From NCBI GenBank assembly GCA_965197465.1, contig OZ240209.1, positions 3,965,174 through 4,029,173 of the forward strand: 64,000 bases of DNA, given 5' to 3'. Positions within the stretch are counted from its first letter, which is position 1, and each line of letters opens with the position of its first letter. The DNA is from Candidatus Poribacteria bacterium (lineage in GTDB: Bacteria; Poribacteria; WGA-4E; JAJDTR01). Below the pieces are notes generated by a model. That model was given only the letters and a program-made list of their open reading frames with translations, had not been told where the DNA came from and ran no database searches. Below, piece by piece: positions 10,845 to 64,000 of the stretch. Position numbers and translations under genes: made by a program.

Positions 10845-10959
10845 CGGATAGCGACTGCGATAGCTAGTACAGCGGCGTTGTTTAGGGGCTTGGCATGTAA
10901 CGCTCATACCACTGGCCAAAAGCATCAAGCGAAACGGCAGTCGCCAGCTGGAGGACTCT

Positions 10960-11024
10960 CTATGGGAACTCTATCGCACTCCCTATCCGTTCGTTTGATC
11001 CCCGATGAAAAGGGGACTGAAATC
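10960..11024 (+). repeat. Orphan degenerate CRISPR repeat CCCGATGAAAAGGGGACTGAAATC fused to an inverted GATCAA/GCGATAG-type module
   Basis: 11001-11024 matches the 3' two-thirds of the array repeat with a few substitutions. It is preceded by CTATCGCACTCCCTATCCGTTCGTTTGATC. Confidence 0.6.
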
Positions 11025-11215
11025 TCAAACACAGTTGGGCATCGATAAGCGCGGTGGGTATGTTACCGCCTATAAAAAGGACGCAACACTCGGTGTTTTC
11101 ATGTATATTGATGAACATGGCGGGGATATCGGCGCCTTTGCCAATGACCAAGAACGTGTGAAATAACGACTGACTGTCACACTTGTGACAGTCAGACTAC
11201 CCATAAGGAGATTGC

Positions 11216-14020
11216 ATGCGAACAATACGAATACTACTCACCATATTCCTTCTTGCCCCCCTCCCCGTCTTCGCCGCTATCACAGTCGTCGACGACCAGT
11301 TGCACGTCGACACGGCAGCCTACACCGTTCTATTCGACCGCGGCACCATCACTCAACTCCATAACAAGCGCACCGGCGAAACCCACACTCTCGCCCCCGG
11401 CGCCAACCCGAATCCGGGGTTTAGTAAGCAGACTGCCATCGTAGGCCGGGGTAATATCAAAGATTGGTCGCCCCGTTGGGATGCCGACATACAGATAAAC
11501 AAAATTACTGACCACCACGCTGACATTGTATTTCGAAAGGGCGGGAACGCGATAACACTGTCAATCGGCATCGACCCCGCCAACAACGACCTGCTTATCG
11601 GAGGACAGGCTGTATCCGCGATACCCGGCGTTATTGGTATCCAATGGTCTGTCGAAAACCTTGATCTCCATAACCTTAGCCTCATCATCCCATCTCAAGG
11701 GATACAACAAATCGACGCCTCCTCCGCTATCGAACACCGCAACTTTCCATATCCCGACACATTCCGCTGGGAAGCGCAGCTTGCTATTATAGAATCCCAA
11801 CTCGGCGGGTTCTACGTCCGAGGCACCGATACAACCTTCCGATTCAAAGAACTAAATTATCAGCGCGACGATACCAGTTTCGGGCTCGTGTTCAAAACCA
11901 TAAATCAAGCGCCGTGGGATAGCCTCACATCAGCCAAGTCCGTCACCTGGCGCCTCAATACCTACGTTGGAGAGTGGTGCGTTCCCGCTCAAATACACCG
12001 CGACTGGATGGAACAGGCGTTTAACCCCTGGCGTCTTAGCGACGTACCGGCGTGGGTCAGTGATATCGGCTTGGTCGTTTTCCTCACGAAACTGGATACG
12101 GAACAGCTGAACGCGGTGGAAGCCTTGGCACAGCACGTTGAACCGACGCAAACGCTTTTCTATCTGACAGATTGGCGCAAATACGAGAACGATATCATGC
12201 ACCCGGATTTTACCGCCATTCACCATAATTTTGAAACGTTTCTCGAGGTCGCTCGGCGGTACGGATACCGGATTATGCTGCACGTTAACCTTCATAACTG
12301 CTCGCCGACCCATCCGCTCTATGCGGAATTCAAGCAATACCAAATACGACATCCCAACGGCGAACTGTCCGGCTGGAGATGGGACGATATTGATCATCCG
12401 GACCGGAATGCGCACATCAGTCTCGGCAGTTCGCGTTGGCGCAACCTGCTTATCCGACAATTCAAGGCGCTAAGGGACAAATACGCCATAGACGCCTTTC
12501 ATCTTGATGTGAGCCACTACATCGTCAACGACGGCAACGGTTTGGTCGAAGGTCTTACCAGCGCCGAAGCGAGCGTGCTGATGCACCGGCAGTTGATGGA
12601 AGCCATGCCGGGCGTGGTGCTTGCCGGTGAACACCTCCACGAAGTCACGTTTTTCCGCGAAAGTATCGCACAACGCAATTTATCGGAGCATGCCACACAC
12701 CCGCTCAGCGCCTTCCTCTTTGCCCCGTACACCCGGTTTATGGGGCATCTTGGATTTCCGCGTGAACACAATCCCCAGCGCCTCCGATACGCGATCCAAT
12801 TTTACGAACGTCAAGGTACTCTACCGACCGCGCGAATATCGAACGAAAGCCTATTACACCAACCGATCACCCGGGACATACTCGCTGTTGCACGCCAGTG
12901 GCAAGCGTTGAAGTTGACGCCTGATATCCACTGCCATTGGTGCGAAAATACCCTATTCCAATATACCACGGACAACGGCGAGAGTGTGACCTACCAAAAG
13001 GTCGACGGCGTATATTCACTCAATATACCCGACGGTAACGGATACCGGCGAGTGCATGGCGTCACCCAAGCCGCTACCCGGTGGAGCCTCCCCGAATGGC
13101 GCGCGTACAATGAAGAGATGCTTCTCGGTCTGGATCCGAACAAATACTATTCGCTCCGCAATGCGCCGCGCGATGTCTCCCAATTACACATTAACGCGCT
13201 TTCCCCGGGTGTTTACGTGGCAGAGACCCGCGTAACACCGCAAGCCGCCGTCTTTCGACTCGAGTCGACCTCCGGGGTTAGAGACACCTCTGTAGATATG
13301 TTCCTTCCAATGCCGCCGCTTGCAAGTGTTCCAAAGACACTTGTCTCCGTAGCCGGCAATCACTACCGTATCGACACAAATCTATCCCGACCTATCGTAA
13401 TCATACTCGCCGCGCCGCGCATTCGCCTGCCCTATAATTTAAGAGACTATCCGTTTATCGCCGGATTGCAACAGAGCGGTATCTTCCGAGTCGGAAGCCA
13501 CCACGGATCCGGCGAACGTATGACAGCGACCCTTGATGGTATCCATAAAGAGACCATCTTTGCCCACCCGCCTAAAACTGACAAAACAATTCTCCAATTC
13601 GTGTTTACGCTGCCCGAATCGCCGTCAACCCTTTCATACTCGATGGGGTTAGCCGGAGAACACAGCAAGGGCGTTCTGTTTGAAATCCGCCTTAACGGCC
13701 AGACGCACGTTAACTTCTTGAAGGATACCTTCGACTGGACGGACGGCAGTATCTCGCTTGACGAATTTGCGGGCGAACCCGTACTATTGGAATTTGTGAC
13801 AGACCCTGGGGACAGCTCGGACTACGATTGGGCGCATTGGGGGGATTTGATCATTACCGCTGACACGAATCCAGCCGATGTAAACGGGGACGGCATTGTC
13901 AACATCCTCGATTTGACGCTTGTGGCTCAAGCGTTCGGAATGAGTAGTGCGGCGGCTGACGTGAACGGTGACGGCGTCGTGAACGTTTTCGATTTGGTTT
14001 TTGTGGCGAACGCTTTTTAG
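11216..14020 (+). CDS. Secreted 934-aa putative glycoside-hydrolase-like protein with a C-terminal type-I dockerin
   Basis: Signal peptide ILLTIFLLAPLPVFAA. The C-terminus has two dockerin repeats DVNGDGIVNILDLTLVAQAFG / DVNGDGVVNVFDLVFVANAF. AAGGAGA RBS. Confidence 0.7.
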   Translation: MRTIRILLTIFLLAPLPVFAAITVVDDQLHVDTAAYTVLFDRGTITQLHNKRTGETHTLAPGANPNPGFSKQTAIVGRGNIKDWSPRWDADIQINKITDHHADIVFRKGGNAITLSIGIDPANNDLLIGGQAVSAIPGVIGIQWSVENLDLHNLSLIIPSQGIQQIDASSAIEHRNFPYPDTFRWEAQLAIIESQLGGFYVRGTDTTFRFKELNYQRDDTSFGLVFKTINQAPWDSLTSAKSVTWRLNTYVGEWCVPAQIHRDWMEQAFNPWRLSDVPAWVSDIGLVVFLTKLDTEQLNAVEALAQHVEPTQTLFYLTDWRKYENDIMHPDFTAIHHNFETFLEVARRYGYRIMLHVNLHNCSPTHPLYAEFKQYQIRHPNGELSGWRWDDIDHPDRNAHISLGSSRWRNLLIRQFKALRDKYAIDAFHLDVSHYIVNDGNGLVEGLTSAEASVLMHRQLMEAMPGVVLAGEHLHEVTFFRESIAQRNLSEHATHPLSAFLFAPYTRFMGHLGFPREHNPQRLRYAIQFYERQGTLPTARISNESLLHQPITRDILAVARQWQALKLTPDIHCHWCENTLFQYTTDNGESVTYQKVDGVYSLNIPDGNGYRRVHGVTQAATRWSLPEWRAYNEEMLLGLDPNKYYSLRNAPRDVSQLHINALSPGVYVAETRVTPQAAVFRLESTSGVRDTSVDMFLPMPPLASVPKTLVSVAGNHYRIDTNLSRPIVIILAAPRIRLPYNLRDYPFIAGLQQSGIFRVGSHHGSGERMTATLDGIHKETIFAHPPKTDKTILQFVFTLPESPSTLSYSMGLAGEHSKGVLFEIRLNGQTHVNFLKDTFDWTDGSISLDEFAGEPVLLEFVTDPGDSSDYDWAHWGDLIITADTNPADVNGDGIVNILDLTLVAQAFGMSSAAADVNGDGVVNVFDLVFVANAF

Positions 14021-14078
14021 CTTTCCGTTTGGCTATGTCTAGCGGGCCTTCGTGTATGAAGAACATGATGATAACAAA

Positions 14079-14166
14079 GTAGCAACCGACGCCGCGATGA
14101 AAAGCGATCAACTGAGATCAAATGAGCGAATAACGATCAGGCGAATGAAAAATGAGCGCGATAGCA
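14079..14166 (+). repeat. Orphan degenerate CRISPR repeat GTAGCAACCGACGCCGCGATGAAAAGCG followed by GATCAA/GCGATAG modules
   Basis: It shares GTAGCAACC with the array's terminal degenerate repeat (10808) and GCCGCGATGAAAAGCG with the consensus repeat. Confidence 0.6.
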
Positions 14167-14223
14167 TGCCTTCCGCCAATAAAACAGGAACCGAATCCTA
14201 TGCAAAATTTGCGGTAATTTTGA

Positions 14224-14252
14224 TTGACAACTTCACGCATGTATAGTATGAT
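14224..14252 (+). promoter_or_regulatory. Sigma70-like promoter TTGACA-N17-TATGAT with no annotated gene downstream
   Basis: -35 at 14224-14229 and -10 at 14247-14252. The next credible gene (gdhA) is 1.3 kb away. The only ORFs in between look non-coding. Confidence 0.3.
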
Positions 14253-14825
14253 AATGCCGATGCCGCGAAGCCGATTGGTAACAGCCGCGCACTTGTTCCT
14301 TCTCGCATTCAACCGCCGAGAGGGAAATCCCATGTTACGTGTACATTGCGTTCACCCGCGAAACCTCTAAATCTCTGCTGCCAATGGCTTCCACGGTTAC
14401 TGGAGAAGTCAATACGCCTTCAGAGCGTTGCGCTGGGACCCCAATCCGGTCACCCTTGCATGCAGTTATTTGGCGTGTAAATAGGAAAAAAACACGGAGT
14501 AAAATGCCGAATCAGTTTCTAATTCGTCTGCCCTGTTTAACTGTTCTTGCGCCTTTTCGGCGCCGGTTTTGTCTGCAAATGAGTGAATCTCGGCGGCGTC
14601 TGGTCGGTGCGCCCGCCGCGTTTTTGGCAGTAGTTTCAGCGTTGCGGAGAAGGGGGTCAGCGTTATATTCGCAGAAAATCGCAGTGTTTCGCTCGCTCAA
14701 TCACGAGCCGAAATCATGCACGGAGCCAAGCTGTGACACGCTTCCACGCTATTTTTGACTCGCAGCGCATTGACTGCGATTCGAATTCACCAGACCGCTG
14801 TAGGATCAAGCGGCCGTTCTAAGAA

Positions 14826-15114
14826 ATTAAGTAACTGTTTAGTTCAATTTATGAAGGTGCTAAAAGGGCGTCCCATCAGGACAATTGCACATAATTCTAA
14901 AGATGTAGAGATTTTCTCTGCGATTACCAGATTACCAATTTTCCCTCTTCTCTTTGCACGATTATCAAAAGCCCCAGCGGGGCGGCAGGTGTATAGAAAC
15001 GTGAATTCACTACACAGCAAAGCCCCAGAGGGGCGACAGGTGCATATAACTTCACATGACCGAAAGTGCCTTTCCCTCCTATTATTCAAACAGGCTCTAA
15101 ACAGTTACGAAATT
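14826..15114. mobile_element. 289-bp MITE-like element bounded by 18-bp imperfect terminal inverted repeats AATTAAGTAACTGTTTAG / CTAAACAGTTACGAAATT
   Basis: 16 of 18 bases match between the TIRs. The interior holds two copies, 51 bp apart, of AAAGCCCCAG(C/A)GGGGCG(G/A)CAGGTG(T/C)ATA, each a GCCCC-loop-GGGGC hairpin. No clear target-site duplication. Confidence 0.3.
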
Positions 15115-15581
15115 AACAATAATCAACTGACTGGAAAAGGAAGGAGCAACTGACCAATCAATCAAGTGAACAGCGAGCAGGATAAACTATCGCCTTGGGA
15201 TTTCTATCGCACTCACTATCCGCTCATTTGATCGATAGAGATTCTATGGAGTTCATTACGCGTCGGAAATTCGAATTTCTCTTACATGCGGTACACGCTA
15301 ACTTATCCCGAATCCTGGCATTCGCCTCTACCAACACCGAGGCAGCGAACACACCACGGTGAGCCCCACATATGATGCGCGAAGAAAAGCGAACTTTTTC
15401 GGAACTCGCCGATACATGCTTGAGGGCGCGTCAATACACGCTTCGACCTCAATTTTCGGCTTTACAAGCAAACTCCGCTCATTTGATCGACAGAGAATCG
15501 AGGGCGAATGAGTTCCTACAGTAGTCCAACTGCGATATACATCTTGTACCACTCCAATCAGCGATGTAAGGGAGAATCGAT

Positions 15582-17063: not shown

Positions 17064-17798
17064 GTGCGAGATTATGGTGATTTTGTCCGAAGATTACAGG
17101 GGTTGAGTTTGCCCAATTTACAGCAAGATACGCTTGGCGAGGTCGATGGCTACACTATCTATCGTCTGCAGTTCGGGGCCGCCTCTCGTGTGAAGCGGCA
17201 GGTCTTGATAACCGCCGGCCTCCATGGAGATGAGCCGGCCGGGCCCGAAGCGGTTCTGCGGTTCTTGCACGAATACGACGCAACACGCTATGACGACTTC
17301 AGATTTCTCGTCCTTCCTTGCATCAATCCGTACGGCTATGTCCACAATACGCGCGAAAACAGGACGGAAATAGACCTCAACCGTGTGTTTGAAGCCGACA
17401 ATCCGCCAGAGGAAGCTCGTCTCGTCAAAACTGCGGTCGAGGGCAAACGATTCGATTTCGCAATAGATTTTCACGAGGATTGGGAAGCCGCCGGATTTTA
17501 CTTCTATGAGGGACGCAAAAGTGAGAACTGGATTGGGCCGGAGATCATCCGGAACGTCGAAAGCGTTGGCCCAATCGACCGGGAGAACGATGAAAACGAC
17601 TTGCCGATTGCCGATGGTGTGTTTAAGGTCGATCCCGGCTGGGGGCGACAAGGGTTTACCCCCTACCTGCTCGCTTTTCACTCCCACCACGTGATGATTT
17701 GCGAGACACCTATGAGTTGGCCCATGCACCAGCGCACCGCGGCTCACCTGAAGGCACTGGAGACGGTGTTGGCTCATTACGATCAACTGAGCGGATAG
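17064..17798 (+). CDS. Succinylglutamate desuccinylase/aspartoacylase (M14-like zinc hydrolase) family protein
   Basis: ITAGLHGDEPAGPEAVLRFL zinc-ligand region typical of the AstE/AspA family. Confidence 0.55.
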   Translation: MRDYGDFVRRLQGLSLPNLQQDTLGEVDGYTIYRLQFGAASRVKRQVLITAGLHGDEPAGPEAVLRFLHEYDATRYDDFRFLVLPCINPYGYVHNTRENRTEIDLNRVFEADNPPEEARLVKTAVEGKRFDFAIDFHEDWEAAGFYFYEGRKSENWIGPEIIRNVESVGPIDRENDENDLPIADGVFKVDPGWGRQGFTPYLLAFHSHHVMICETPMSWPMHQRTAAHLKALETVLAHYDQLSG

Positions 17799-17977
17799 CG
17801 AAGGCGATAGCTAATCCCGATAGAAAATTCTTCTCACTATTCTTTCGCTTGATCGCTCGATCTATTCAGTCGTTTAATCTTTTCCAGAGGTGTTGGGTTT
17901 CACTCAAATGTCCGTACTTTCGGGCGAAATGAAATCTCGACAATCATCTTCTGTGTGTGGTTTTTCCCAGTTTTCCG

Positions 17978-18041
17978 TTCAACCCAACCTACGTGCTTGA
18001 CTGGTTTCTGCGTAGTGCGGGGCAAGATGCCCCGCACTACG
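17978..18041. repeat. Copy of the dispersed 16-mer TTCAACCCAACCTACG followed by a 13-bp-stem hairpin (CGTAGTGCGGGGC-AAGAT-GCCCCGCACTACG)
   Basis: The 16-mer recurs at 32905 (rc), 53835, 57480 (rc) and 58005. The hairpin is seen directly at 18011-18041. Confidence 0.6.
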
Positions 18042-18059
18042 AGAACAGGGAGCAGTTCG

Positions 18060-18117
18060 TGTCCCGATGAAAATGATCAAGGGAGGGAATAGCGACCAGG
18101 AATTTCTATCGGTTGAG
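18060..18117 (+). repeat. Orphan copy of the CRISPR trailer junction: CCCGATGAAAATGATCAAGGGAGGGAATAGCGAC...
   Basis: Near-identical to 10820-10866 at the array end (CCCGATGAAAAGGATCAAGGGAGCGGATAGCGAC). Confidence 0.6.
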
Positions 18118-21200: not shown

Positions 21201-21799
21201 CTAACGGAGCAGAGGTATACGTAGCCGGTCAAATATCTTCGTTTCGCCTCACGAAAACGAAAAAATCCGGTGAATCAATGGCTATCTTGGTGGTTGAAGA
21301 TTTAGAGGGTGTTATTGATGTGGTCGTGTTTCCGGAGGCGTACAAAATTTCTCAACACGCCATTGAGGAGGGGAACTTCGTGTGGATACGCGGGACGGTG
21401 AGCTTAAATCGGCAGCAGACCAGATCCGATGAAGGGGAGATCGAAGAGGATGTGCGCCAGATCCAAGCGTCCGAGATTCTGCCTATTGGCCAGGTCGAAA
21501 GCCGGATATCGGCGGTTGAAGTCACGATTCCTGAAGCAGATATCGCAAATCAAGAAAAGATGGAAAGGCTACGGGCAATCTGTAACAAACACGGTGGGGA
21601 CAACGACCTCATATTACGGCTTGCGTACCCACGTTACGGCGAGGTCATAGCCCAATGCAGCCCAAAGTACAATGTTTCCTACGAATCCACACTCGTGGCG
21701 GAAGTTGAGGCGCTTTTCGGACATGACAGCATAAAGCCTAGCAATCGCACCACGCGAGTCGGAGAGCGCACAAACGGTTCTTCGGTCAGTTATGTTTAG
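18263..21799 (+). CDS. dnaE: DNA polymerase III alpha subunit
   Basis: N-terminal PHP domain FVHLHNHSEYSLLDG. 1178 aa. GAGGAG RBS. The ATG at 18263 is preferred. Confidence 0.95.
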   Translation: MATSAFVHLHNHSEYSLLDGACHIDGIVDWAAEQSVPAVALTDHGNMFGAWEFYKKAKDKGVNPIVGCEAYVAPQSRHERGREQGSAYHLTLLAEDATGYRNLMKLVSIGYLEGFYSKPRIDMEILREHRDGIIALTGCIQGYVPALLASNQREAAMKNFQLLQDVMGRDNLYVEVQNHGIAEEKSAYKVMMQLAQEHGLPIVGTNDCHYLNRSDHRMHDVLLCIQMKRTVDEENRMRFLNEFYFKNIDEMHEALKDFPPEAITNTLEIANRCQLELDYGEHIMPKYEVPEGFTADSYLAKLCAEALREKYGEISTEMSKRLDTELEVIQKTGYAGYLLIVWDYVNFARRQKIPFVGRGSAGGSLAMFALGVTTFNPLDYDCLFERFLNLERVTMPDIDIDFGDEHRKIVIDYLTERYGSECVGQVATFSTFAAKAAVTDVGRALSMEMQDVRRVTQQIPVVPGVTLDESLADVPRFRELAEAPENRDMMAVAKSIEGMKRHVSIHACGIVLANGPLTDYVPLFKDKNDRVATQYNLKTLEDVGMVKFDFLGLRTLSEVHHCLAQVKERHGGELTLETIPLDDEKTYQVISAGLVAGLFQLETSPGMRRVTMQIKPNNFEDFVPISALYRPGPLDSGMMDKFIRRKLKVEAVTYLHPTLEDALKNTYGVCIYQEQVMQIARDMAGFTLGEADVLRDAMGKKKMDVLKMQRQKFIEGARNNGIDKQKAGEVFDYLEPFGRYAFNRSHTVAYAIMSYQTAYLKTHYPREFMASMMSGESGSSEKIVKYIAECRQLSEFLDIKMDVLPPDVNSSGWDFTVDGEDIRFGLAAVKNVNEGAIESIVKTREKDGSFTSLQDFCERVDAKAVSKRVIESLIMAGAFDSFEEGHRAQHFANLEQVMQVAQSAQADREKGQMNLFGAAEQELPVTEPVLDEVSEWEHNEVLKNEKEQLGFYLSGHPLEAYDDVLDNFTTATSQTLAENPNGAEVYVAGQISSFRLTKTKKSGESMAILVVEDLEGVIDVVVFPEAYKISQHAIEEGNFVWIRGTVSLNRQQTRSDEGEIEEDVRQIQASEILPIGQVESRISAVEVTIPEADIANQEKMERLRAICNKHGGDNDLILRLAYPRYGEVIAQCSPKYNVSYESTLVAEVEALFGHDSIKPSNRTTRVGERTNGSSVSYV

Positions 21800-21834
21800 T
21801 GCCTGTTTGAATAATAGGGGTAAGTCCGAACAAC

Positions 21835-22095
21835 AACGATCAACTGAGCGGATAATGAAGGCGATAGAAAATTACGTGCGATAGAGATCTTCCCCTCCCC
21901 CGTTTCCCAGCGCGGATCGGGAGACCCAACCCCTAGGTTGGCACTGTCAAATGTCAACGCAACCTAGTACAGCTTGGCGTAATTGCCGTATGAGTTGACG
22001 GTAGGTGCGATCAAGTGACCGATCAACCGAGTGAACAACGAGGGCGATAGTAGATCCCATAGGGAACGCGATAGAGATCCCTTTCCTAATCGCAC
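21835..22095. repeat. Composite intergenic repeat block (GATCAA/GCGATAG mosaic elements G and H)
   Basis: 22000-22095 is CGGTAGGTGCGATCAAGTGACCGATCAAC...GCGATAGTAGATCCC..GCGATAGAGATCCC...TCGCACCG, with short inverted termini. It is a near-duplicate of 38249-38348. Confidence 0.6.
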
Positions 22096-22197
22096 CGTCA
22101 GTTAAGGTACAGTTTAAGTGCACGTACAAAGGGCACCCGTTAACCGTTTAATTCACTTAACTATTTCCGCCAACGTGTACTGGCAACTTGGGTGACA

Positions 22198-23745: not shown

Positions 23746-23763
23746 GTGTGCGGCGTACGGAAC

Positions 23764-24144: not shown

Positions 24145-24172
24145 GTAGGGAATAACAATCGTTACTCCCTAC
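24145..24172. repeat. Imperfect copy of the 28-bp palindrome GTAGGGAATAAC(G/A)ATCGTTA(T/C)TCCCTAC
   Basis: The perfect copy is at 60616-60643. A partial copy lies near 63905. Confidence 0.5.
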
Positions 24173-27100: not shown

Positions 27101-27113
27101 CGCTTGATTGCGC

Positions 27114-47308: not shown

Positions 47309-47323
47309 AATTGCTTCCTCTCT

Positions 47324-49141: not shown

Positions 49142-49259
49142 ACCTTGTATTGGATTGCCGAGACATTAGCGCTAAACTTGCTTCATCTATTGCGTCTCTA
49201 CGGAGTTAGCAACTTTAGGTGGTCCGTCTCTCAGCGACGCACACCATCAAAAGAACCAT

Positions 49260-49613: not shown

Positions 49614-49984
49614 TTTTTGCCCTCCTGAAAAAGTTGCCAAGTCGATAAATTTATTGCGTTGAAGTTTGAAATGTAACAAAGACAGACACACAGGTTTGTG
49701 CGATTGCCTTTCCGTAATACGGCGGGTTCTTCGCTTGTCCAAGTCTTTCGAAAGCAGCGCGTCTCTAATCTATCAGGCGTTATTGCCTGCAAACACTAAA
49801 CCCGCGGTATTTGTTCCATCGCTGATTCTAAAGGATATATGACCTTTTGTCAAGCCTTCAACACAGAGAATCGTATCCGGTCACACCTGCAAAATCGGTT
49901 GACCCCTGTTTGGCGTTGTGTTAAAATTTAGATTGTCCTTACAACACACCAACCAAGTAGGTTTGAGGAGATTGTGACGAGATC

Positions 49985-51244: not shown

Positions 51245-51389
51245 TGGTCGTTAAGCATATATTGGCAATCAGTGGTTAGTATAACGTGTGCGACCAAGTA
51301 CGTAGAGAACGCAGATCTGCGTTCCCTACTATCTCAGGTGCATGGGTCCATAAATTTTAGCAATTTCCGGCTTCTAGAAAGGAAAAATA

Positions 51390-52610: not shown

Positions 52611-52790
52611 ACGAGTGAGTTTTCGGCGCTTTGCTTTGAATGTTCGCGCAGGAACTAAATGCGCGGCGGTGCCCGTCTGATCGCGAGCGGTCTTTTCCCT
52701 TCACACCCAATTCCACTCGGTGGAACCAGCGGACCCTGTCACCACTTCTTATGTCACCAATCATCTTCTAGTACACGTAGCGCTTCTTTC

Positions 52791-53696
52791 ATGTACACAT
52801 TCTTCGCCATCTTTCTGGCTTCCATTTGCTCAATAGAACCTGCGGTAGATTTATCGCCGGATGAGCGTCAGCCTACAGAAAAACAGTTGCTCTATGCCGA
52901 GCAACTCTTCGACGCGCGTATTTACAATTCCTCAATTCTTGAGTACAAGCGTTTCCTTTTTTACCAACCGCACACGGAATTGGCGGATTTTGCCCGTTAT
53001 CGTATTGCCCAAGGGAATTACTATCAAGGTAACCGGGGATATTCCCAGCAGCTTTTCAGGGAATTCATGGAAAGTTTTCCTGAGTCTCCGCTATATCATC
53101 GCGCGCAGCTAATGCTGGGAACAACTCACCTAGACGACCAAGAATACGCTACAGCTAGATCGATTTTCTTTCAAGTCTTGCAAACAAATGATGATGAACG
53201 TCTGTTGGTGCAAGCGCAATACCTGCGCGGCTGGTGCTATGTACATGACCGAAATTGGTTTAAGGCGATAGCGGAATTCCGCAACGTGGATCATCTGCGC
53301 GTAGAAAATCGTGATACGGGACTTTTTGACTCCCGTCTTGAACACGTCGCTACCAAACTTGCAGACACTACCCTCGCTAGTACGCCGTTACCGCTAAAGT
53401 CACCGAAATTTGCCCAGTTATTGTCCACGGTTGTTCCCGGGAGTGGGCAAATCTATGCTGGAAAGCCCCGCAACGGTCTGATTTCTCTAGCAATCAATGC
53501 CACATTTTTCTACTTGCTGGCAGATTCATTTGTCGATAGGCGTTATGTTGATGCGGTGGGAATCTATCTGGTGGGTTCTCGGTTCTATTGGGGCAATCGT
53601 CACAATGCGAAGAAATGGGCGATGGAGCATAACCGAGATCTTGAGATGGGGCTTATTGAACAGCTAAGAAGCATTGAGCGTGAAATCATTGATTAG
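52791..53696 (+). CDS. TPR-like exported/membrane protein of unknown function
   Basis: Signal-like MYTFFAIFLASICS. TPR-like helices. A hydrophobic C-terminal segment. Start chosen at internal M45. Confidence 0.45.
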   Translation: MYTFFAIFLASICSIEPAVDLSPDERQPTEKQLLYAEQLFDARIYNSSILEYKRFLFYQPHTELADFARYRIAQGNYYQGNRGYSQQLFREFMESFPESPLYHRAQLMLGTTHLDDQEYATARSIFFQVLQTNDDERLLVQAQYLRGWCYVHDRNWFKAIAEFRNVDHLRVENRDTGLFDSRLEHVATKLADTTLASTPLPLKSPKFAQLLSTVVPGSGQIYAGKPRNGLISLAINATFFYLLADSFVDRRYVDAVGIYLVGSRFYWGNRHNAKKWAMEHNRDLEMGLIEQLRSIEREIID

Positions 53697-53919
53697 GTGG
53701 ATAATTATTCACTGCGATTTTATAAATGCGGACCGCGCGATGAAGTGTTGGATTTCACTTGGATTTCGGCACTTTTGATTGAAATCAAATCTCGAAATTC
53801 CTTCTTCTGCATGTGATTTCTCATGATTTTCCATTCAACCCAACCTACATGATGCGATTTGATGATCGAGGTCAGTTTCACGGCAAATGAGGCTACCCAA
53901 ATCGAATTTCAAACAGGCA

Positions 53920-55035
53920 CTAGCATTCTTGCAAGTGCCGAGTCAGCAGGCATTTACCGGCAGTGACCGATAGTTCAATCGCGAGAATCAAAATAGGGGG
54001 ATAGTCAAGAGCCGTGGCATTATCGCCTTCATTCGTGCAAAAAGGGGCTAATTTGAGTTCATCCTTGCGAGTCGTTGCGATAAAGTCTGCCCCTGTTTGT
54101 TTCGCCTCACGTTGAATCCTAACGAAGTCCGTCCGGGAGTATTGATGATGGTCGGGGAATGGCAGTAAATCAACTTTCTGCGGCTCATAGCGGCGCAGCG
54201 TTTTCGCAAACGCCCCCGGATTGCCAATCCCGCAGACAGCCAATAGGTTCTTCCCCTTCAAAACGCCGAAATCAACGTCCTCGCCTTTTCCTAGCCGGTA
54301 GAGCCGCGTCGGCTCATGGCGGCTCTCTACAATCGGCGTACCCCCTGCCAACGTGGTGATGTTCTCGCGTATTTCATCCGCGGATTCCACCATGTCAACT
54401 CGTGTTAGGGTAATCAGATCCGCCCGTCGTAACGCCGATACCGGTTCGCGTAATGTCCCCGCTGGAAGCAACTTTTTCGTTCCAAACGGCTGCGTTGCGT
54501 CCACGGTAACGATATCCAGATCTCGCTCCAATTTTCGGTGTTGAAATCCGTCATCCAAAATCAGCACGTCGGGCTTCAATCCTCGCAAGGCGTGGCAACC
54601 AGTTTCATAACGATCTTTCCCGATAAGCACCGGGACACTTGGTAGTTCCCGCACGATCATTGCGGCTTCATCGCCGCTCGTCTCAACCGACGCCAAAATC
54701 TCTCGACCATCCGATACGATGTGCGTCGCCAGTGTCTTTTCTTGGCGGTGATAGCCGCGCAGCAGGATGGCTGGACAGCGACCCGCTTCTTGCAACGCCT
54801 TTGCAATCCAAATGACTACCGGCGTTTTGCCCGTACCGCCAGATACAATGTTGCCGACGCTAATCACGGTGGGCGGCAGTCGCTTCGATTTGAGGAGGCG
54901 ACAATCGTAGAGCCAATTGCGGATGTTAACAATCGCCGCATAGACATAACTCAGCGGCGTTAGCAGGGTTAGTAGGAGGGTGGGAAGGGGACCCGTTTCT
55001 TTCCGCGTGATAACGAAATAAAGATAGCTTTTCAT
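53920..55035 (-). CDS. lpxK: Tetraacyldisaccharide 4'-kinase
   Basis: P-loop VGNIVSGGTGKTP. 4-nt overlap with lpxB. Confidence 0.85.
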   Translation of the reverse strand: MKSYLYFVITRKETGPLPTLLLTLLTPLSYVYAAIVNIRNWLYDCRLLKSKRLPPTVISVGNIVSGGTGKTPVVIWIAKALQEAGRCPAILLRGYHRQEKTLATHIVSDGREILASVETSGDEAAMIVRELPSVPVLIGKDRYETGCHALRGLKPDVLILDDGFQHRKLERDLDIVTVDATQPFGTKKLLPAGTLREPVSALRRADLITLTRVDMVESADEIRENITTLAGGTPIVESRHEPTRLYRLGKGEDVDFGVLKGKNLLAVCGIGNPGAFAKTLRRYEPQKVDLLPFPDHHQYSRTDFVRIQREAKQTGADFIATTRKDELKLAPFCTNEGDNATALDYPPILILAIELSVTAGKCLLTRHLQEC

Positions 55036-56150
55036 GATTCGACGTAACCCAACACCAACTGCGCGGTTCGTTCTGCCGCCCCGGAGTCTCCAAGTTGTTC
55101 ACATACGCTGCGAAGTGCCTTACGCTGGTCTTCCCGTTTTTCCGAATCTTGTAGTAAATCGAGCGCGATTGAAGTTATCCGCTCAACCTCTACATCATCT
55201 TGCAAAAGTTCGGGAACGATGTGGCGCCCCGCGATAATATTCGGCAACGCGCTTGAATCAAGCCTGACAAATCGCTTTGCCGTCCACCAACTGAGTCGAG
55301 ACAACTTATAGAGCACGACCATCGGCGTCAGGAGACATGCCGCTTCAAGCGTGGCTGTGCCCGATGCCACCAACAGCAGATCGGAGGCGCGCATGGCTTC
55401 GTACGTCACGTCCTTGACAATTTTGACCGTTGGTGCTTCGGGTAAGGTCTCCGGAGGGATGCTTGGTGCGAGAGGTAGAATCAACTGGCAATCGGGAATC
55501 GTTCGGCGAACCCCTTCGGCGGCGTCTAACATCACCGGATACAAGGCTTCCACTTCCCGGCGCCGACTGCCCGGCATTAAACCGAGGACGGGGGCATCTG
55601 TCCCCAAGCCAAGTTTTTCACGGGCTTGGCCTACGCTTAACTCTGAGTTGGCGTAGTCCAACAATGGGTGACCGACGAAATTAGCGTTCGCTCCCGCACA
55701 CCGGTAGAATTCGGTCTCAAAAGGAAAGATTGAGGCAACCGCGCTTGTTCGCTTGGCAATCTTCCTCGCGCGATAACCGCGCCATGCCCACGCTTTCGGA
55801 GGGATGTAGTAGACGACGGGGATATGCAGTCGATGCGCGCACGTAGCAAGCCCCATGTTGAATTCTGCGAAATCGACGAGCACGACCGCGTCTGGACGCT
55901 TTTCGCGAATGAGCCGATTTAAGCGCCGCTGCTTTTTCAGGAACGCCGGAATCGCCGAAAGCACCTCTCCGATGCCCATCACCGCCGAATCGCGAATGTG
56001 ATAAACGAGTGAAACCCCTGCGGCTTCCATGCGGTCGCCGCCCATTCCGAAGAGCTCGATCTCGGGACGGAGGGTTTTGAGTTGAGCTGCAACCCGAGAT
56101 GCCTGCAAGTCGCCGGACGGCTCGCCGGCAACAATCAGAATCGCTGGCAT
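55032..56150 (-). CDS. lpxB: Lipid-A-disaccharide synthase
   Basis: N-terminus ILIVAGEPSGDLQASRV. GT19 family length. Confidence 0.9.
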   Translation of the reverse strand: MPAILIVAGEPSGDLQASRVAAQLKTLRPEIELFGMGGDRMEAAGVSLVYHIRDSAVMGIGEVLSAIPAFLKKQRRLNRLIREKRPDAVVLVDFAEFNMGLATCAHRLHIPVVYYIPPKAWAWRGYRARKIAKRTSAVASIFPFETEFYRCAGANANFVGHPLLDYANSELSVGQAREKLGLGTDAPVLGLMPGSRRREVEALYPVMLDAAEGVRRTIPDCQLILPLAPSIPPETLPEAPTVKIVKDVTYEAMRASDLLLVASGTATLEAACLLTPMVVLYKLSRLSWWTAKRFVRLDSSALPNIIAGRHIVPELLQDDVEVERITSIALDLLQDSEKREDQRKALRSVCEQLGDSGAAERTAQLVLGYVES

Positions 56151-56261
56151 TTTCTCATTCTCACATTTCGCCTGGGAATTAGAAGGAGATACGGCACCGT
56201 ATTCGTTAAGACGGTTGGGAGAGGGGAATATTCGTTCTGATTATTGATGCTTGCCGCATCG

Positions 56262-57305
56262 CTACGGCATCATACCCGGAATGAGTAACCCTGCGGTTTC
56301 GTCTAAGCCAAACATCACATTCAGGTTCTGCACAACCGCACTCGACGCGCCCTTGCCGAGGTTGTCAATCGCAGACAACACGACGACTCGATTTGTGCGC
56401 ACGTCGACTTCAAGTCCGATATCACAGTAGTTGGTTCCGGCAACCGCTTTTGTCTGCGGGTACTCCCCCTGATCGAGAACACGGACAAAAGGCTCTTTTT
56501 CATAGTATTTTGAATAAATCGCCAACAACGACTCAGTTGAAATATCTGCTTTGAGTTGGAAGTAGAGTGTGCTCAGAATTCCCCGCGTCATCGGAACAAT
56601 GTGGGGCGTAAAGATCGCGCGGATAGTCTCGCCAGCGATCTTGCTCAACTCCTGCTCAATCTCCGGGGTGTGGCGATGCGTGCCGATGTTGTATGCGATA
56701 AAATTCGATTCTCGATTGGGAAAATGTGTCGTTGCGCTGGGGGTGCGCCCCGCGCCGGAGATTCCGGACTTCGAGTCGATTATGATTGAGTCTAATTCAA
56801 CCAAATCTCTGGCAAGCAGCGGCAGCGCGGGGAGAATGGCGCTTGTCGGATAGCACCCGGGATTTGCCACTAGCTCTGCCGTGCGAATCTCGCTTCGATA
56901 AAGTTCCGGCAAACCGTAAACTGCGCGCTCCATCCACTCGGGGTCCGAGTGCTTCACATGATACCATCCCTGATACGTTTCAGGATCGTCCAAACGATAA
57001 TCTGCACTGAAATCAATAACGCGAAGACCCTGTTTTAGAATCTTCGGTACATACGACATGGCAACTTTGTGAGGAACGGAAAGAACAACGACATCTACCC
57101 GATCTCTGAGCGTCTCAATCTCCAACGGCTCGAATTCAAGGTCGATTAAGTCACGAAGGTTCGGCATTATCCGGTCTACCCGCTGGCCAGGATACGTTTC
57201 CGATGTGACCATCTCGATTTTTAACTCGCCCGGATGGCTAATCAGGAAACGCAACAATTCACTGCTCGTATAGCCTGATGCCCCCACAATGCCAACCTTT
57301 ACCAT
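56262..57305 (-). CDS. argC: N-acetyl-gamma-glutamyl-phosphate reductase
   Basis: VGIVGASGYTSSELLR and catalytic Cys region PGCYPTS. GAGGAG RBS. The ATG at 57305 is preferred. Confidence 0.9.
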   Translation of the reverse strand: MVKVGIVGASGYTSSELLRFLISHPGELKIEMVTSETYPGQRVDRIMPNLRDLIDLEFEPLEIETLRDRVDVVVLSVPHKVAMSYVPKILKQGLRVIDFSADYRLDDPETYQGWYHVKHSDPEWMERAVYGLPELYRSEIRTAELVANPGCYPTSAILPALPLLARDLVELDSIIIDSKSGISGAGRTPSATTHFPNRESNFIAYNIGTHRHTPEIEQELSKIAGETIRAIFTPHIVPMTRGILSTLYFQLKADISTESLLAIYSKYYEKEPFVRVLDQGEYPQTKAVAGTNYCDIGLEVDVRTNRVVVLSAIDNLGKGASSAVVQNLNVMFGLDETAGLLIPGMMP

Positions 57306-57479
57306 TGGGATTAGCGCTCCTCGTGTTGTACCTAATTTTAGAATACCGGTGGGACTGAACCTTCTGTGACCGGTGAAGAATTGTAGCATTCAGAATTTCG
57401 GATGTCAAGACCAATGCCAAATGCCGGCGGCGAAGTAGAAAACATTGCCATTTATGGAGAGTTTATCGCGCCTTTAGCG

Positions 57480-58020
57480 CGTAGGTTGGGTTGAACGGGA
57501 CTAACCAACAAAACCGGAATGACACATAGCGGTAGGAGCGATCAAGCGAACGATCAACTGAGATCAACCGAACGGACAGTGAAGGAGCAAACGAGTGGAC
57601 AATGAGTGCGATAGTAGATCCTGATAGAGATATTTCAGTGAATGCGATAGAGATCCCTCTCCGAATCGCGACTCGTACGTGCGCTACATCAGGAATCGGA
57701 ATTCCCTCCTACAGCCGTAGACCGTTTCTCCTGCCTCTTTCTACTGGCAAAAGAAGACCTGAACGTATCTATAGGCGAACACTCTTTGACTCTGTTGGGT
57801 TGAACGACATTAACCAATATAACCCGGCATTACGCGCGGCTTAAAGAGTTTAATTCCGCTTGAACTCTAACACATCTAGTGAAACCCAACTGGATAATCA
57901 ACACGCGGGTTGGATTGAGGTGTTGGGTTTCGTTCAATTCCGGTTCAAGTCCGCCCCATTGAAAAACAGAACTTGATTGTGCTATAGCGATTCGCATTTT
58001 ACCACTCAACCCAACCTACG
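57480..58020. mobile_element. 541-bp non-coding element bounded by perfect 15-16-bp inverted repeats CGTAGGTTGGGTTGA(A) / (T)TCAACCCAACCTACG. MITE-like. Contains GATC-rich mosaic modules and nested hairpins.
   Basis: TIRs at 57480-57495 and 58005-58020. The interior 57529-57672 is a GATCAA/GCGATAG element. 57889-57940 holds the nested inverted repeats GAAACCCAAC...GTTGGGTTTC. Confidence 0.35.
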
Positions 58021-58179
58021 GACTGTTGGTATTACCCTCGACTACATATAAAGGTTCAATCCCGGGGGGAATATGTGGTAAAATCAGGGGAGGCACCATG
58101 CTACGGACGAGCGGTGTCAAGTTTCGCGATTATATTATCGAATTTCCTTGACGATGGCAAGGGAACGTTATTGTAGGGA

Positions 58180-58370
58180 TCAATCTACCGACTGATTAAG
58201 GAGGGATCAAGCGAATGAATTATGAGTGCGATAGAACTCCCATAGCAAATCCCTCAACTGACCGAAAAAGGTTCAAGCAAGCGATTAGCGAGTGTGATAG
58301 CAAATCCCGTGCGACAGAGTTCCCGTAGCGAATGCAATAGAAATCCCTCGCAATTCCCTAGAAGAGTCCT
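58180..58370. repeat. Tandem ~20-bp units of the GCGATAGnnnATCCC module (five units) upstream of the ARH gene
   Basis: GAGTGCGATAGAACTCCC / ATAGCAAATCCC / GTGTGATAGCAAATCCC / GTGCGACAGAGTTCCC / GCAATAGAAATCCC. Confidence 0.55.
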
Positions 58371-58454
58371 GCAATATCAGATTATCGCAGAATATCATCA
58401 TTTCTGCGTTTTGCGAAAGTTCTGATCATCTTACAATACGGGAGGTATTTACTT

Positions 58455-60615: not shown

Positions 60616-60643
60616 GTAGGGAATAACGATCGTTATTCCCTAC
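60616..60643. repeat. Perfect 28-bp palindrome GTAGGGAATAACGATCGTTATTCCCTAC centred on GATC
   Basis: The reverse complement is identical. It lies 44 nt after the ARH stop. An imperfect copy is at 24145-24172. Confidence 0.7.
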
Positions 60644-62615: not shown

Positions 62616-62706
62616 AGGGTTTTTCCAGTAAAGGCTGGTGGGATTTCTATCGCACTTCCTAGTCGGTCGCTTGATCGCATTGCACACCCTACAGGAGTTT
62701 CACCGC

Positions 62707-63816
62707 TTATTCGGAAGTTTGTGCGTCCGACAACCATTCTAGCGAGAATCGCGCAAATGTAATCTTCTCGCTGGAATGCTCCTCCCCACGCTCGTAGAAA
62801 CATCCGATACTGTTGTCCGGCAATACCGTTAGACAGGAGTAGGCGGACGGACCGGGATGCAGCATTTTGGAGGCATGCCACGTCTTCCCTTCGTCGTAAC
62901 TCGCGCGGACGGTCATGCGGTCGCGAGCGGTATTCGCCGGGTTGGAAAAGAGTACCGCATTCCCACTCGTGTGTCGGAATACACTCGCTTGGCAGCGCGG
63001 GTCGATAAGCGCTCGATCTTTGCGCACATCGCCCCATGTCTCGCCGCTGTCGCGGCTAAATGCGACAGTTCGATAGTGCGGATCTTCTGCTTGATTTACC
63101 CAAGCATGGTACCGGATACTGAGCAGCAACGTGCCGTCAGCCAACTCGACCACCTGACACTCGCTCGTGGTGTTGTCGGGCACACTGCCGCCGAGTTTCC
63201 ATGTTTCGCCGTGGTCGTCGCTGTAGAAGACGTGGGAATGGTAATCCCAGCCTCCGGCAACGCCATGGTCGCACGGAATAACCAAACGCCCCTTGTGGTC
63301 GCCGTATTGTAACTGAATGCCGCTCCCCGGACCGGTTGCATACCACGACCAGTTCGGCGCCTTCGTCGTCGAGGTGATTTCAACCGGCGAGGACCACGAT
63401 GCGCCCGAATCGTCGCTCTTGATAGCCCAGATTGTTCGAGTGCTCTTGCTTTCCCCTTTCCAGATTGTCGTCTCGTGGTCTTCAACCAGGTTGTGGCACG
63501 CCAAGAGCCAAACCGTGCCTGTCTCCTGATCGACCACGGCACACGGGTTGCCGCAGGTGTTGGGACCGTCATCCCAAATGACTTGCATTTCACCCCATGT
63601 GGCGCCGCTGTCCGCGCTGCGCTTCAGGACAAGGTCGATATCGTCGGTATCGGAACCGGTCATCCTTCGCGCCTCGCAAAACGCAAGCAACTCCCCATTG
63701 GGCGCGACGACGACCGACGGTATGCGATAGGTATGCGAACCGTCTTGTCCGCTGATGAAAACATCTGTCTGTTTCAGTTGGGATGAATCACTTGGAGGAG
63801 TGGAATCTGTAGGCAC
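62707..63816 (-). CDS. BNR/Asp-box repeat exo-alpha-sialidase-like glycoside hydrolase
   Basis: Five Asp-box motifs: SADSGATW, SDDSGASW, SDDHGETW, SRDSGETW, YDEGKTW. Confidence 0.8.
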   Translation of the reverse strand: MPTDSTPPSDSSQLKQTDVFISGQDGSHTYRIPSVVVAPNGELLAFCEARRMTGSDTDDIDLVLKRSADSGATWGEMQVIWDDGPNTCGNPCAVVDQETGTVWLLACHNLVEDHETTIWKGESKSTRTIWAIKSDDSGASWSSPVEITSTTKAPNWSWYATGPGSGIQLQYGDHKGRLVIPCDHGVAGGWDYHSHVFYSDDHGETWKLGGSVPDNTTSECQVVELADGTLLLSIRYHAWVNQAEDPHYRTVAFSRDSGETWGDVRKDRALIDPRCQASVFRHTSGNAVLFSNPANTARDRMTVRASYDEGKTWHASKMLHPGPSAYSCLTVLPDNSIGCFYERGEEHSSEKITFARFSLEWLSDAQTSE

Positions 63817-63899
63817 TGGTGTATGATTAATCTTTTTTGGGTAGTGTTATCATGTCGTAATGATGCCGGTTTGAGTTTCTATTCTTCTACGAACGGTGA

Positions 63900-64000
63900 A
63901 TAATCTTGGGGACGAATTGTGATGCCATAGGGAATAACGAGGGATCTCTTTCGGACGGGAATTGCTATCGCCCTGTGGGATCTCTATCGGGATCTACTAT
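63900..64000. repeat. Reverse-orientation GCGATAG/GATCCC mosaic element running off the window end
   Basis: GGGATCTCTATCGGGATCTACTAT is the reverse complement of ATAGTAGATCCCGATAGAGATCCC. Preceded by a partial CATAGGGAATAACGAGGGATC palindrome fragment. Confidence 0.5.

Follow-up and report, generated by a model that had tools for sequence, protein, structure and literature searches.

Between the genes of a 64,000-nucleotide (nt) stretch of a Candidatus Poribacteria genome (contig OZ240209.1, positions 3,965,174 to 4,029,173 of the forward strand; the whole stretch is called the window, and positions are counted from its first letter) lie many copies of a GATC-rich repeat with a basic unit of 35–37 nt, GATCAA-NN-GA-NN-GRATA-NN-GA-NN-GCGATAG-nAGATCC(C). 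We consider it probable that these units are Poribacteria-specific, very small, non-autonomous insertion modules that home to hairpins, nest in one another and are reshaped by slippage. The unit's structure and its covariation, filled and empty insertion sites, a bias towards hairpin targets and indels between strains were all observed, as was nesting in one clean case. [quoted passage not shown]

The family extends well beyond the window. A species-wide scan (one genome per species, query GTAGGNGCGATCAAGYGA) returned at least 94 stretches of 8 kb, and among the matches listed about 75 stretches came from eight Candidatus Poribacteria assemblies (OZ244829.1, OZ246960.1, CBDBEE01, CBDCTK01, OZ242354.1, OZ242351.1, CAXXCS01 and JAJDTR01). 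A profile search recovered further family members in every listed Poribacteria stretch (178 matches) and none in the non-Poribacteria stretches among the matches listed. In all, the family was present in at least eight Poribacteria species genomes and in no other group searched; the concern that copies might be confined to the window, as products of local duplication, is answered by this spread over the genomes of several Poribacteria species. Window 38202–38389 is 96.8% identical to sequence from CBDCTK01, and two ENA contigs are 99.5–99.6% identical to window 23.5–44.8 kb. A viral contig collection held no family match, and the four matches in a JGI metagenome collection were all at chance level. 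Extrapolated from local density, a ~6-Mb genome would carry on the order of a thousand units. A limited literature search found no description of Poribacteria repeats, Rfam gave no match at gathering score across the window (chance-level matches only, in 57450–58450), and the HIP1 motif GCGATCGC does not occur in the window, for which reason an origin in cyanobacteria was rejected. Dockerin and leucine-rich-repeat proteins had hinted at Planctomycetes, but the species-wide scan pointed to Poribacteria.

A short unit with a covarying hairpin

A model of the central 37 nt gave 355 unit matches in 232 arrays, and the single unit was the commonest array state (81 arrays). Arrays of several units have a polarity, their GATCAA heads preceding their GCGATAG..GATCC tails, and plain head-tail-head-tail tandems are rare. 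Many copies outside the window comprise just 66 nt, CGGTAGGTGC-GATCAAGCGAATGGATAATGAGTGCGATAGAGATCCC-TTTCCAACCGCACCGG.

Covariation was assessed for the structure ......((..((.....))..)).............. in 144 distinct units. Overall, 96.9% of cells were paired compared with 64.8% in shuffles, none of 500 shuffles reaching 96.9%, and changes on both sides of a pair affected 212 cells compared with 50 in shuffles. All four variable base pairs (4/4) show 3–4 pair types, and controls in which the structure was slid along the unit were 25–62% paired. On the GATCAA strand the 81 wobble cells read G.T, and on the other they would be C.A mismatches; as the wobbles suit the GATCAA strand alone, the structure is carried by one strand. 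Two near-invariant dinucleotides, GA and GA, lie between two 2-bp stems and form what we take to be a tandem G.A pair, and the 5-nt loop reads GRATA. An outer ATC:GAT stem and then the GATCC tail probably complete the hairpin. With RNA energy parameters the hairpin is the minimum-energy fold of several variants, the outer ATC:GAT stem being added. Unit orientation is strongly uniform locally.

Filled and empty sites and their hairpin hosts

Empty sites were sought by joining the 45 nt on each side of an array and searching for the junction, with flanks at least 80% identical. Empty counterparts, paralogous or orthologous, were found for 65 arrays in 28 distinct contexts, several of which had 9–12 empty copies. 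Single-unit inserts measured 34–36 nt, heads alone 23 nt and stacks 53–103 nt. In these 65 filled/empty comparisons the unit had no inverted ends, its junctions overlapped the target by 0–2 nt and there was no target-site duplication of fixed length, the single exception being a 167-bp two-unit cassette with a 12–14-bp duplication. For the units, termini and duplications that the first-pass annotation had wanted defined, the comparisons gave a 35–37-nt unit, termini that come from the host site and an overlap of 0–2 nt.

Individual cases illustrate the range of targets (designations beginning with L are our labels for related loci and strains). A 35-nt unit lies 8 codons before the stop of one copy of an IS3 insertion sequence (IS) transposase gene, and two other copies lack it; a 184-bp MITE is empty in L096 and unit-bearing in L003. 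A repetitive extragenic palindrome (REP) upstream of a gene for a REP-associated tyrosine transposase (RAYT) is filled in L105 and empty in L102 and L106, the filled site reading GAACCCGA^TCAACC...GATCCC^TTTTTCC. The left junction slides, the target providing G, GA or GATC, and on the right it provides C, CC or CCC; the ends of the unit are therefore not sharply defined.

Empty sites had a median folding energy of -4.9 kcal/mol compared with -3.0 kcal/mol for random 44-mers of the same loci (Mann–Whitney p = 3e-4), and for about half of the 28 contexts the point of insertion is within or beside the loop of a GC-rich hairpin. The targets include three GTAG-headed REP-like palindromes, the RAYT-associated REP, other MITEs, the IS3 gene, units themselves and the hairpins of CRISPR repeats. 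The host sequences are as follows, with ^ marking the insertion point.

Type 1 host: GTAGGTGCG^GTTTCCAACCGCACC, -10.9 kcal/mol, z -4.8
Type 2 host: GTAGGAGCGATC^TCCAGGTCGCGAC, -3.7 kcal/mol, z -1.05, a weak fold
Type 3 host: GTAGGGTGCG^CCCTGCGCACC, -8.8 kcal/mol, z -3.3
Type 5 host: GAAACCGAGTTTT..AAAACTCGGTTTC
Other host: GCCCCAGAGGGG^C
Other host: GCGCTCCAGAGGA^GCGC

Host types 1 and 3 are GC-rich palindromes of 20–40 nt with a 5' GTAG, and the unit is not. Two earlier suggestions hold in part. MITE-like inverted termini had been described, and the pair CGGTAGGTGCG...CGCACCG is indeed present on both the 22000 and the 38250 copies; these termini are the arms of the type-1 hairpin, pushed apart by the insert, and belong to the host hairpin, which also occurs empty, and not to the unit. 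Likewise, the comparison with REPs and bacterial interspersed mosaic elements (BIMEs) holds for the termini, as arms of GTAG-headed REP-like palindromes, but the unit itself is not a REP. The window also holds hosts in their unoccupied state:

4429–4453, + strand: empty type-2 host hairpin GTAGGAGCGATCTCCAGGTCGCGAT, the unoccupied state of the 57530, 41720 and 27120 sites; its core, GTAGGAGCGATCTCCAGGTCGCGA, is the same as in empty paralogues
4527–4558, + strand: unoccupied type-5 REP hairpin GAAACCGAGTTTTGGGGAAAAAACTCGGTTTC, the REP that flanks the RAYT gene in related strains
1186–1213: second empty copy of the type-5 hairpin

Copies of this RAYT-associated hairpin, a further one of which is at 28052–28063, lie between cas genes and at other places in the window. 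Many composites elsewhere share longer flanks because the occupied hairpin sits within larger repeats. One of these is a MITE of ~330 bp with the terminal inverted repeat CCCCATAGGGATCAAGTTAAGGG and unusually long target duplications of 14–20 bp that are often palindromic (for example, GGGACGCAGATCTGCGTCCC); it contains the type-1 hairpin and a unit, is absent from the window and was found at L006, L012, L026, L070, L075, L081, L084, L085, L090 and L091. The motif AGAGCCTGTTTGAATAATAGG, present at window 15053–15103, 21793–21818 and 27911–27956, precedes type-3 host hairpins in other loci and is probably part of a larger MITE.

Window copies, nesting and interrupted CRISPR repeats

All 17 intergenic sites listed in the first-pass annotation carry the family, by profile or structure-aware model. 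The sites near 10850, 10970, 14110, 15190, 17790, 21840, 22000, 27030, 31660, 32985, 38250, 41590, 57530, 58190 and 62640 were matched, and those near 18080 and 63900 (truncated by the window end) were matched weakly. No family copy lies in a credible gene on the open reading frame (ORF) and Pfam map of the window, in agreement with the intergenic placement first described, and none was found in window 1–10800 (cas genes and CRISPR array) or 42000–57500 (tightly packed operons). Chance does not explain the family, as motif counts are far above expectation: GCGATAGNNGATCCC with at most one mismatch has 5 matches (0.07 expected) and the 28-nt A module has 2 (0 expected). With a repeat finder the sites fell into several direct and inverted families; a profile made from four copies found 5 full-length composites, at 21997–22098 (+), 27002–27121 (-), 38247–38343 (+), 41603–41724 (-) and 57528–57673 (+), and ~15 partial copies, and the structure-aware model (CM R1) found 16 units at E<0.01. 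The copies are:

10834–10870, + strand: unit, left arm of the 167-bp two-unit cassette (CM R1 42.8 bits, E 5e-6)
10871–10963, no strand: cassette middle, found nowhere else in the ~0.75 Mb of Poribacteria DNA searched first
10964–11000, - strand: unit, inverted right arm of the cassette (CM R1 52.0 bits)
14105–14171, + strand: two partial heads and one unit (CM R1 match 14135–14171, 37.6 bits)
15124–15250, both orientations: degenerate heads (+) facing an intact unit at 15197–15233 (-) (52.5 bits)
17781–17880, both orientations: unit at 17781–17817 (+) facing degenerate heads (-) (54.8 bits)
21838–21885, + strand: unit and extra tail, 39 nt past the dnaE stop (41.6 bits)
21998–22097, + strand: composite of type-1 host hairpin arms (CGGTAGGTGCG/CGCACCG), outer unit and nested inner unit at 22023–22058
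27002–27121, - strand: composite in a type-2 host hairpin, inner unit inverted (27032–27068, +)
31663–31699, + strand: single unit directly past the stop codon of a dihydrolipoamide dehydrogenase-like gene (CM R1 59.5 bits)
32996–33044, - strand: unit with a perfect 12-nt tandem duplication (CTATCGCACTCG x2)
38248–38345, + strand: composite of type-1 host hairpin, outer unit and nested unit at 38277–38313
41603–41726, - strand: composite with a type-2 hairpin as host, longer by one 23-nt head than in L095 and L096
57527–57673, + strand: composite in a type-2 host hairpin, several heads and tails
58176–58350, + strand: array of units and fragments (58205–58241, 58271–58307)
62640–62676, - strand: single unit beside a possibly decayed type-3 host hairpin (GTAGGGTGTGC..) (51.7 bits)
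63939–64000, - strand: degenerate tails and a unit, truncated by the window end (E 0.34, weak)

Sequences 21998–22097 and 38248–38345 are identical in 80 of ~90 aligned columns, roughly 89% with three indels, close to the ~90% first estimated. The description of the elements as GATC-rich was likewise accurate: 40 of the 221 GATC sites in the window fall within the 2.4% of it that the elements occupy, and this richness follows from two near-invariant GATC sites per unit. The tandem period of ~20 bp described in the first-pass annotation was not recovered, the real periods being about 12, 23 and 36 nt. Whole elements are mostly not unusually stable folds, and their z values of -2.1 to +1.6 do not support REP-like stable folding at this level.

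Nesting is clearest in the 22000 composite. Removing 36 nt (22023–22058, TCAACC...GATCCC) from 22009–22081 leaves a consensus unit, GATCAAGTGACCGAATAGGGAACGCGATAGAGATCCC, with 4/4 pairs intact; the inner 36 nt come after the GA of the outer unit's loop. In the copy at 38250 the inner unit lies 6–7 nt further on, after the second GA, and because the inner units occupy different positions the two copies record two separate nested insertions. One unit is single in L081, and in L085, L091 and L086 its head and tail have an extra 36-nt unit between them. At least in part, the stacked GCGATAG..GATCCC pieces represent 3' tails that belong to nested units, with one clean nested case in the window.

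Slippage has also left its mark. Between 99.6%-identical strains the sole indels of more than 7 nt in aligned sequence are a 12-nt duplication (33003) and a 23-nt head (41652–41678), both within elements and both in register; strain L096 has one copy of the 12-mer that is doubled in the window at 32996–33044. In L095 one breakpoint of a 3-kb replacement falls exactly at the end of this unit. There, window 32877–33044 is replaced by ~3 kb (11717–14698) containing an IS3, an IS5-type element and further units; the IS3 separates the heads from the tails of a unit array and has a GTG duplication of 3 bp, and a PfkB-family gene at the replacement is annotated as two fragments. The 184-bp MITE, with a 9-bp target duplication (AATGCAGGG), occupies 1752–1936 in L096 and is absent from the window (41474) and from L095; here a different family shows a recent insertion polymorphism.

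CRISPR repeats have been targeted repeatedly. A type I-D-like cas operon lies at 223–6594 of the window (Csc2, Cas3 helicase, Cas1, Cas2 and Cas4), and there is a CRISPR array at 7012–10770 with 52 perfect 37-nt repeats (GTAGCAGTGAGTGCCGCGATGAAAAGCGGACTGAAAG) and spacers of 34–41 nt (mode 36); the repeat itself is a GTAG plus hairpin and in that respect REP-like. The spacer ATGTGGCACGAGTTTATATTCATGCAGACCGGACGGATG occurs three times near the trailer end (10433–10770), giving 114-nt repeat-spacer-repeat duplications. Downstream, four further pieces of CRISPR repeat were recognized:

10808–10833, + strand: 5' 26 nt (GTAGCAACCATTGCCCCGATGAAAAG) of the terminal degenerate CRISPR repeat, interrupted by a unit (5 mismatches/26 nt)
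11001–11023, + strand: 3' part of the split terminal repeat; CCCGATGAAAAG (11001–11012) duplicates 10822–10833
14079–14104, + strand: old trailer CRISPR repeat, 5' part only, with units directly after it (6 mismatches/26)
18049–18112, + strand: 5' part of an old CRISPR repeat (18049–18074), then a degenerate unit (profile E 0.11)

At the split terminal repeat, repeat positions 1–26 are followed by the 167-bp cassette (unit +, 93 nt, unit -) and then by CCCGATGAAAAGGGGACTGAAAT. The direct repeat flanking the cassette is 12 nt, or 14 nt counting one base per unit end, and removal of the cassette with one copy of the duplication restores a repeat of exactly 37 nt (10808–10833 joined to 11014–11023); an intact CCCC..GGGG variant of the repeat is present in L102. 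The repeat halves at 14079 and 18049 carry a unit at the same repeat position. The 18049–18112 region aligns at 94% with related strain L108, where a 14079-type repeat follows the terminal repeat with a 33-nt spacer between them, which identifies these halves as old trailer repeats. Units occupy this same trailer-repeat position 3–4 times in the window, twice in L102, at least three times in L105 and also in L108. A dockerin/DUF6259 gene segment (11024–14078) lies between two old trailer repeats of the window where L108 has just the 33-nt spacer, a difference due either to a segment of gene size having entered the trailer or to sequence having been deleted between the repeats.

The whole cassette is 96–98% identical to four tandem copies in L104 (15807–16552), where the cassette plus 13 nt of the CRISPR repeat recurs with a period of 179. 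This amplification would be accounted for if the flanking duplications had undergone unequal exchange. On the surface, the L104 tandem looks like a CRISPR array whose 'repeat' is 13 nt long and whose 'spacer' is constant. We rejected the cassette middle as a repeat family in its own right: beyond the tandem in L104, the ~0.75 Mb of Poribacteria DNA searched first held no other copy. It is remotely conceivable that units are spacer-sized off-target integrations by Cas1–Cas2, but no repeat-length duplication accompanies unit insertion, which speaks against such integration; no spacer matches a unit.

Candidate enzymes, rival explanations and related systems

In the mechanism that we favour, a unit would insert without inverted ends and with a 0–2-nt overlap, mostly at or near the top of GC-rich hairpins. 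Nested insertion, into the hairpin or the head/tail junction of other units, would pile up GATCAA heads to the left and GCGATAG..GATCCC tails to the right, and in-register slippage would later add or remove pieces of 12 and 23 nt. That the hairpin covaries and is strand-specific speaks for a single-stranded propagating form, and spread may proceed through such an intermediate (DNA or RNA) with a trans-acting enzyme reading the hairpin. The most natural candidate class would be an HUH/Y1 (RAYT-like) enzyme.

Such an enzyme is present in these genomes. A 188-aa Y1_Tnp protein is encoded between cas1 and cas2 in five related strains (L101, L102, L104, L105 and L106, about 8760–9500); it matches NCBIfam NF047646 (REP-associated tyrosine transposase) over the full profile with 75.9 bits, the cutoff being 80, and JGI names some of its homologues RayT. 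Homologues that are 70–73% identical occur in two other genomes, also within CRISPR–cas loci (L109 1501–2067 and L110 1501–2067). Three gene positions are represented: between cas1 and cas2, after cas1, and between WYL and cas6. All RAYT genes are flanked by type-5 hairpins, GAAACCGAGTTTT..AAAACTCGGTTTC, likely the cognate REP of the RAYT, and units are found at RAYT loci solely as insertions into this hairpin. The RAYT gene is absent from the orthologous cas1–cas2 spot in the window, is shortened and looks decayed in L105 and L101, and has a duplicated 3' end in L102 and L106, downstream of a REP carrying a unit. Thus, units insert in the REP of an HUH/Y1 enzyme, and nothing ties that RAYT to the units themselves; a cognate transposase, for which the first-pass annotation had recommended a search elsewhere in the genome, did not emerge, the RAYT of related strains having its own REP. 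A regular expression for the HUH motif found nothing in ~1,000 ORFs, but the pattern is too strict and would miss the HYH of RAYT. Transposase genes were also sought between inverted unit pairs, which enclose only ordinary genes (TolB-like, LamG, PQQ and short-chain dehydrogenase).

Several results weigh against our reading. No transposase gene was found on the ORF and Pfam map of the window, nor any mobilizing gene adjoining units; the RAYT is flanked by its own REP, which differs from the unit, and two RAYT loci lack units. The hairpin is not the minimum-energy fold under DNA parameters and never beats shuffles, even with RNA parameters, so that a fold this marginal thermodynamically presumably needs a protein. 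Unit copies are paralogues, and the covariation counts are inflated by their shared descent. Just half or so of the 28 contexts are clear hairpin tops, and the type-1 host has just 1–3 empty copies, where deletion is possible. Sliding junctions suit microhomology-guided copying as well as they suit an enzyme with fixed cleavage. A general 'healing' test of nesting gave 23/77 compared with 16/77 in controls (median scores 43 versus 33), a modest difference that is not clean because tandem arrangements heal as well. No orientation switch or two-domain pattern was seen along the complete chromosome OZ244829.1, which is weak evidence against a lagging-strand mechanism of the IS608 kind.

It is unlikely that the units are instead functional RNA motifs resident at their sites (for example, hairpins in untranslated regions that bind proteins), kept by selection and spread only secondarily. 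In favour, the covariation includes G.U wobbles on one strand, the hairpin is a minimum-energy fold under RNA parameters only, roughly half of the loops read GGAUA, and units between co-directional genes are sense to the flanking genes in 96 cases and antisense in 57. However, the antisense share amounts to 37%, units lie within dead CRISPR repeats, an IS3 gene and other MITEs, decay is seen in many window copies, unit positions differ between close strains, and no Rfam family matches.

It is also doubtful that the units form a novel class of mini-elements homing to hairpin loops, which an HUH/Y1 or other structure-reading enzyme with a functional tie to CRISPR–cas would move as single strands. 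This idea draws on the RAYT gene in the type I-D cas operon, the GTAG-plus-hairpin form of the CRISPR repeat and the repeated targeting of trailer repeats at one position; the length of the unit is also close to that of spacers in the window array (mode 36 nt). If causal, this tie would bring together REP/RAYT biology, the decay of CRISPR repeats and a mobile module of 35 nt.

Templated repair is an improbable source of the copies. Under this explanation, breaks at hairpins would be mended by copying ~35 nt from existing units through 1–4 nt of microhomology, with no dedicated enzyme. Hairpins are break-prone sites and are the targets here, and the sliding junctions (G, GA or GATC from the target on the left; C, CC or CCC on the right) would suit such copying. 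However, microhomology of 0–2 nt cannot account for the constant choice of a unit as donor, and both the constant insert length of 34–36 nt and the covariation of a strand-specific hairpin are left unexplained.

A classical MITE of ~100–150 bp with CGGTAGGTGCG/CGCACCG as TIRs, a DDE transposase elsewhere and internal modules serving as subterminal binding sites is very unlikely. In its favour, five window copies have both termini in common, the 167-bp cassette is flanked by a 12–14-bp duplication in a CRISPR repeat, and true MITEs with target duplications exist in Poribacteria genomes. Yet the termini also stand alone as hairpins with no interior (for example, at 4429–4453), the interior occurs without termini at most window sites, units insert without target duplication, and the shared flanks of the composites result from their riding within larger repeats. 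No IS with matching ends lies between inverted unit pairs, and no parent IS with the same ends was found in about 0.7 Mb of Poribacteria sequence.

Dispersed protein-binding arrays on duplex DNA, whether GATC-reading (Dam/SeqA-like) or iteron-type, had been another suggestion of the first-pass annotation and are now hardly credible. Each unit does have two GATC sites, spaced by about 12, 23 or 30 nt, and GATC density in the elements is ~7.5x the window average. The GATCs are, however, simply the two near-invariant positions of the unit, there is no enrichment outside the elements (221 GATC sites in the whole window, slightly below the 250 expected), and the stacked pieces that resemble iterons are at least partly nested tails. 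The conserved GA/GA breaks dyad symmetry and the wobbles are strand-specific, neither of which suits duplex DNA; the sites are scattered among housekeeping genes with no replication or partition genes nearby, and the insertions into an IS gene and MITEs look parasitic. Slippage acting at each site without any mobility, giving pure minisatellite growth, can be set aside as a sole cause despite the perfect 12-nt duplication and the 23-nt in-register indel between near-identical strains, and survives only as a secondary process: near-identical 36-nt units occur in 28 unrelated contexts with empty counterparts, adjacent heads are often just ~70% alike and single units are the commonest state.

The unit lacks the defining properties of MITEs and REPs and falls outside the size and host range of the small dispersed repeats (SDRs) of cyanobacteria. 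SDRs are reportedly 21–27 nt long, found in Nostoc and its heterocyst-forming relatives, intergenic, present in hundreds of copies and inserted into other repeats and each other, and some SDR families are said to share a predicted hairpin. SDRs are the closest published analogue of the unit known to us: both are far below MITE size, intergenic, dispersed, nested and hairpin-bearing, and the unit shows SDR-like filled/empty evidence of insertion as well as nesting. The unit differs in being 35–37 nt long, restricted to Poribacteria and unrelated in sequence. We know of no enzyme that moves SDRs, and the question of their spread was, to our knowledge, left open in 2008; nor are we aware of reports of hairpin-top preference, a tandem G.A motif or insertion into CRISPR repeats for SDRs.

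Members of the IS200/IS605 family and their miniatures transpose as single strands, lack inverted ends, make no target duplication and are recognized through a strand-specific hairpin; they also end in two unlike hairpins, target a fixed tetranucleotide and show a strong replication-linked orientation bias. The unit shares the absence of inverted ends and target duplication and the strand-specific hairpin with this family, but two distinct hairpin ends, a fixed tetranucleotide target and an orientation bias were not seen.

REP, BIME and REPIN elements are associated with RAYT transposases (PMC3116915). The host palindromes here are REP-like in being GTAG-headed, GC-rich, strongly folded and present in many copies, in the presence of a RAYT with its own REP and in forming mosaic intergenic clusters; the unit, in contrast, does not have the form of a GC-rich palindrome, is not found flanking the RAYT gene and is inserted into REPs. 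IS1397-type and other ISs are described as targeting palindromic REP units (PMC3116915, with Tobes and Pareja 2006 among its sources). Such ISs and the unit have palindromic REP targets in common, but an IS encodes its transposase, whereas the unit is 35 nt of non-coding DNA. The BOX elements of Streptococcus pneumoniae are MITE-like, 67–637 bp long and thought to be moved by an IS (PMC3184786). BOX elements and our composites are similarly modular, A-(B)n-C, with variable internal modules, conserved ends, intergenic placement and suggested structure at the RNA level; sequence and host are unrelated, and in Poribacteria the ends belong to a separate host hairpin, and nested insertion gives rise to the variable part.

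If the units are hairpin-homing modules, bacterial mobile DNA could be as small as ~35 nt, defined by a covarying hairpin in place of inverted ends and choosing other hairpins as landing sites. Poribacteria would then offer, in complete long-read genomes, a system with hundreds of filled and empty sites for following the spread of sub-MITE repeats. Nesting would explain mosaic intergenic clusters and seemingly tandem motifs, and a process that inactivates old CRISPR repeats would have been identified. At the extrapolated copy number, units would also affect assembly, small-ORF annotation and strain typing of sponge symbionts.

Other repeats also occur in the window. A GTAG-headed palindromic repeat, GTAGGGAATAACGATCGTTATTCCCTAC, occurs at 24145–24172 and 60616–60643 (two copies, 93%). 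Hairpins of the form GCCCCnnnGGGGC at 14971–14983 and 15022–15034 lie inside ORF 14755–15153, which for this reason may not represent a gene. A 49-nt repeat that ends with CAACCCAACCTAC is found at 17947–17995, 53803–53851 and 57974–58022 (61–80%) and is unrelated to the units, and the repeat family ..ATCTTCGATTTGATGATT.. is found at 27909–28033, 41729–41769 and 44876–45002, its inverted copies being 77–88% alike. Dockerin, cohesin and leucine-rich repeat (LRR) proteins are encoded at 11216–14020, 24181–25011, 25132–25944 and 35971–37080, and two dockerin modules (13867–14018 and 24183–24334) are 71% alike in DNA.

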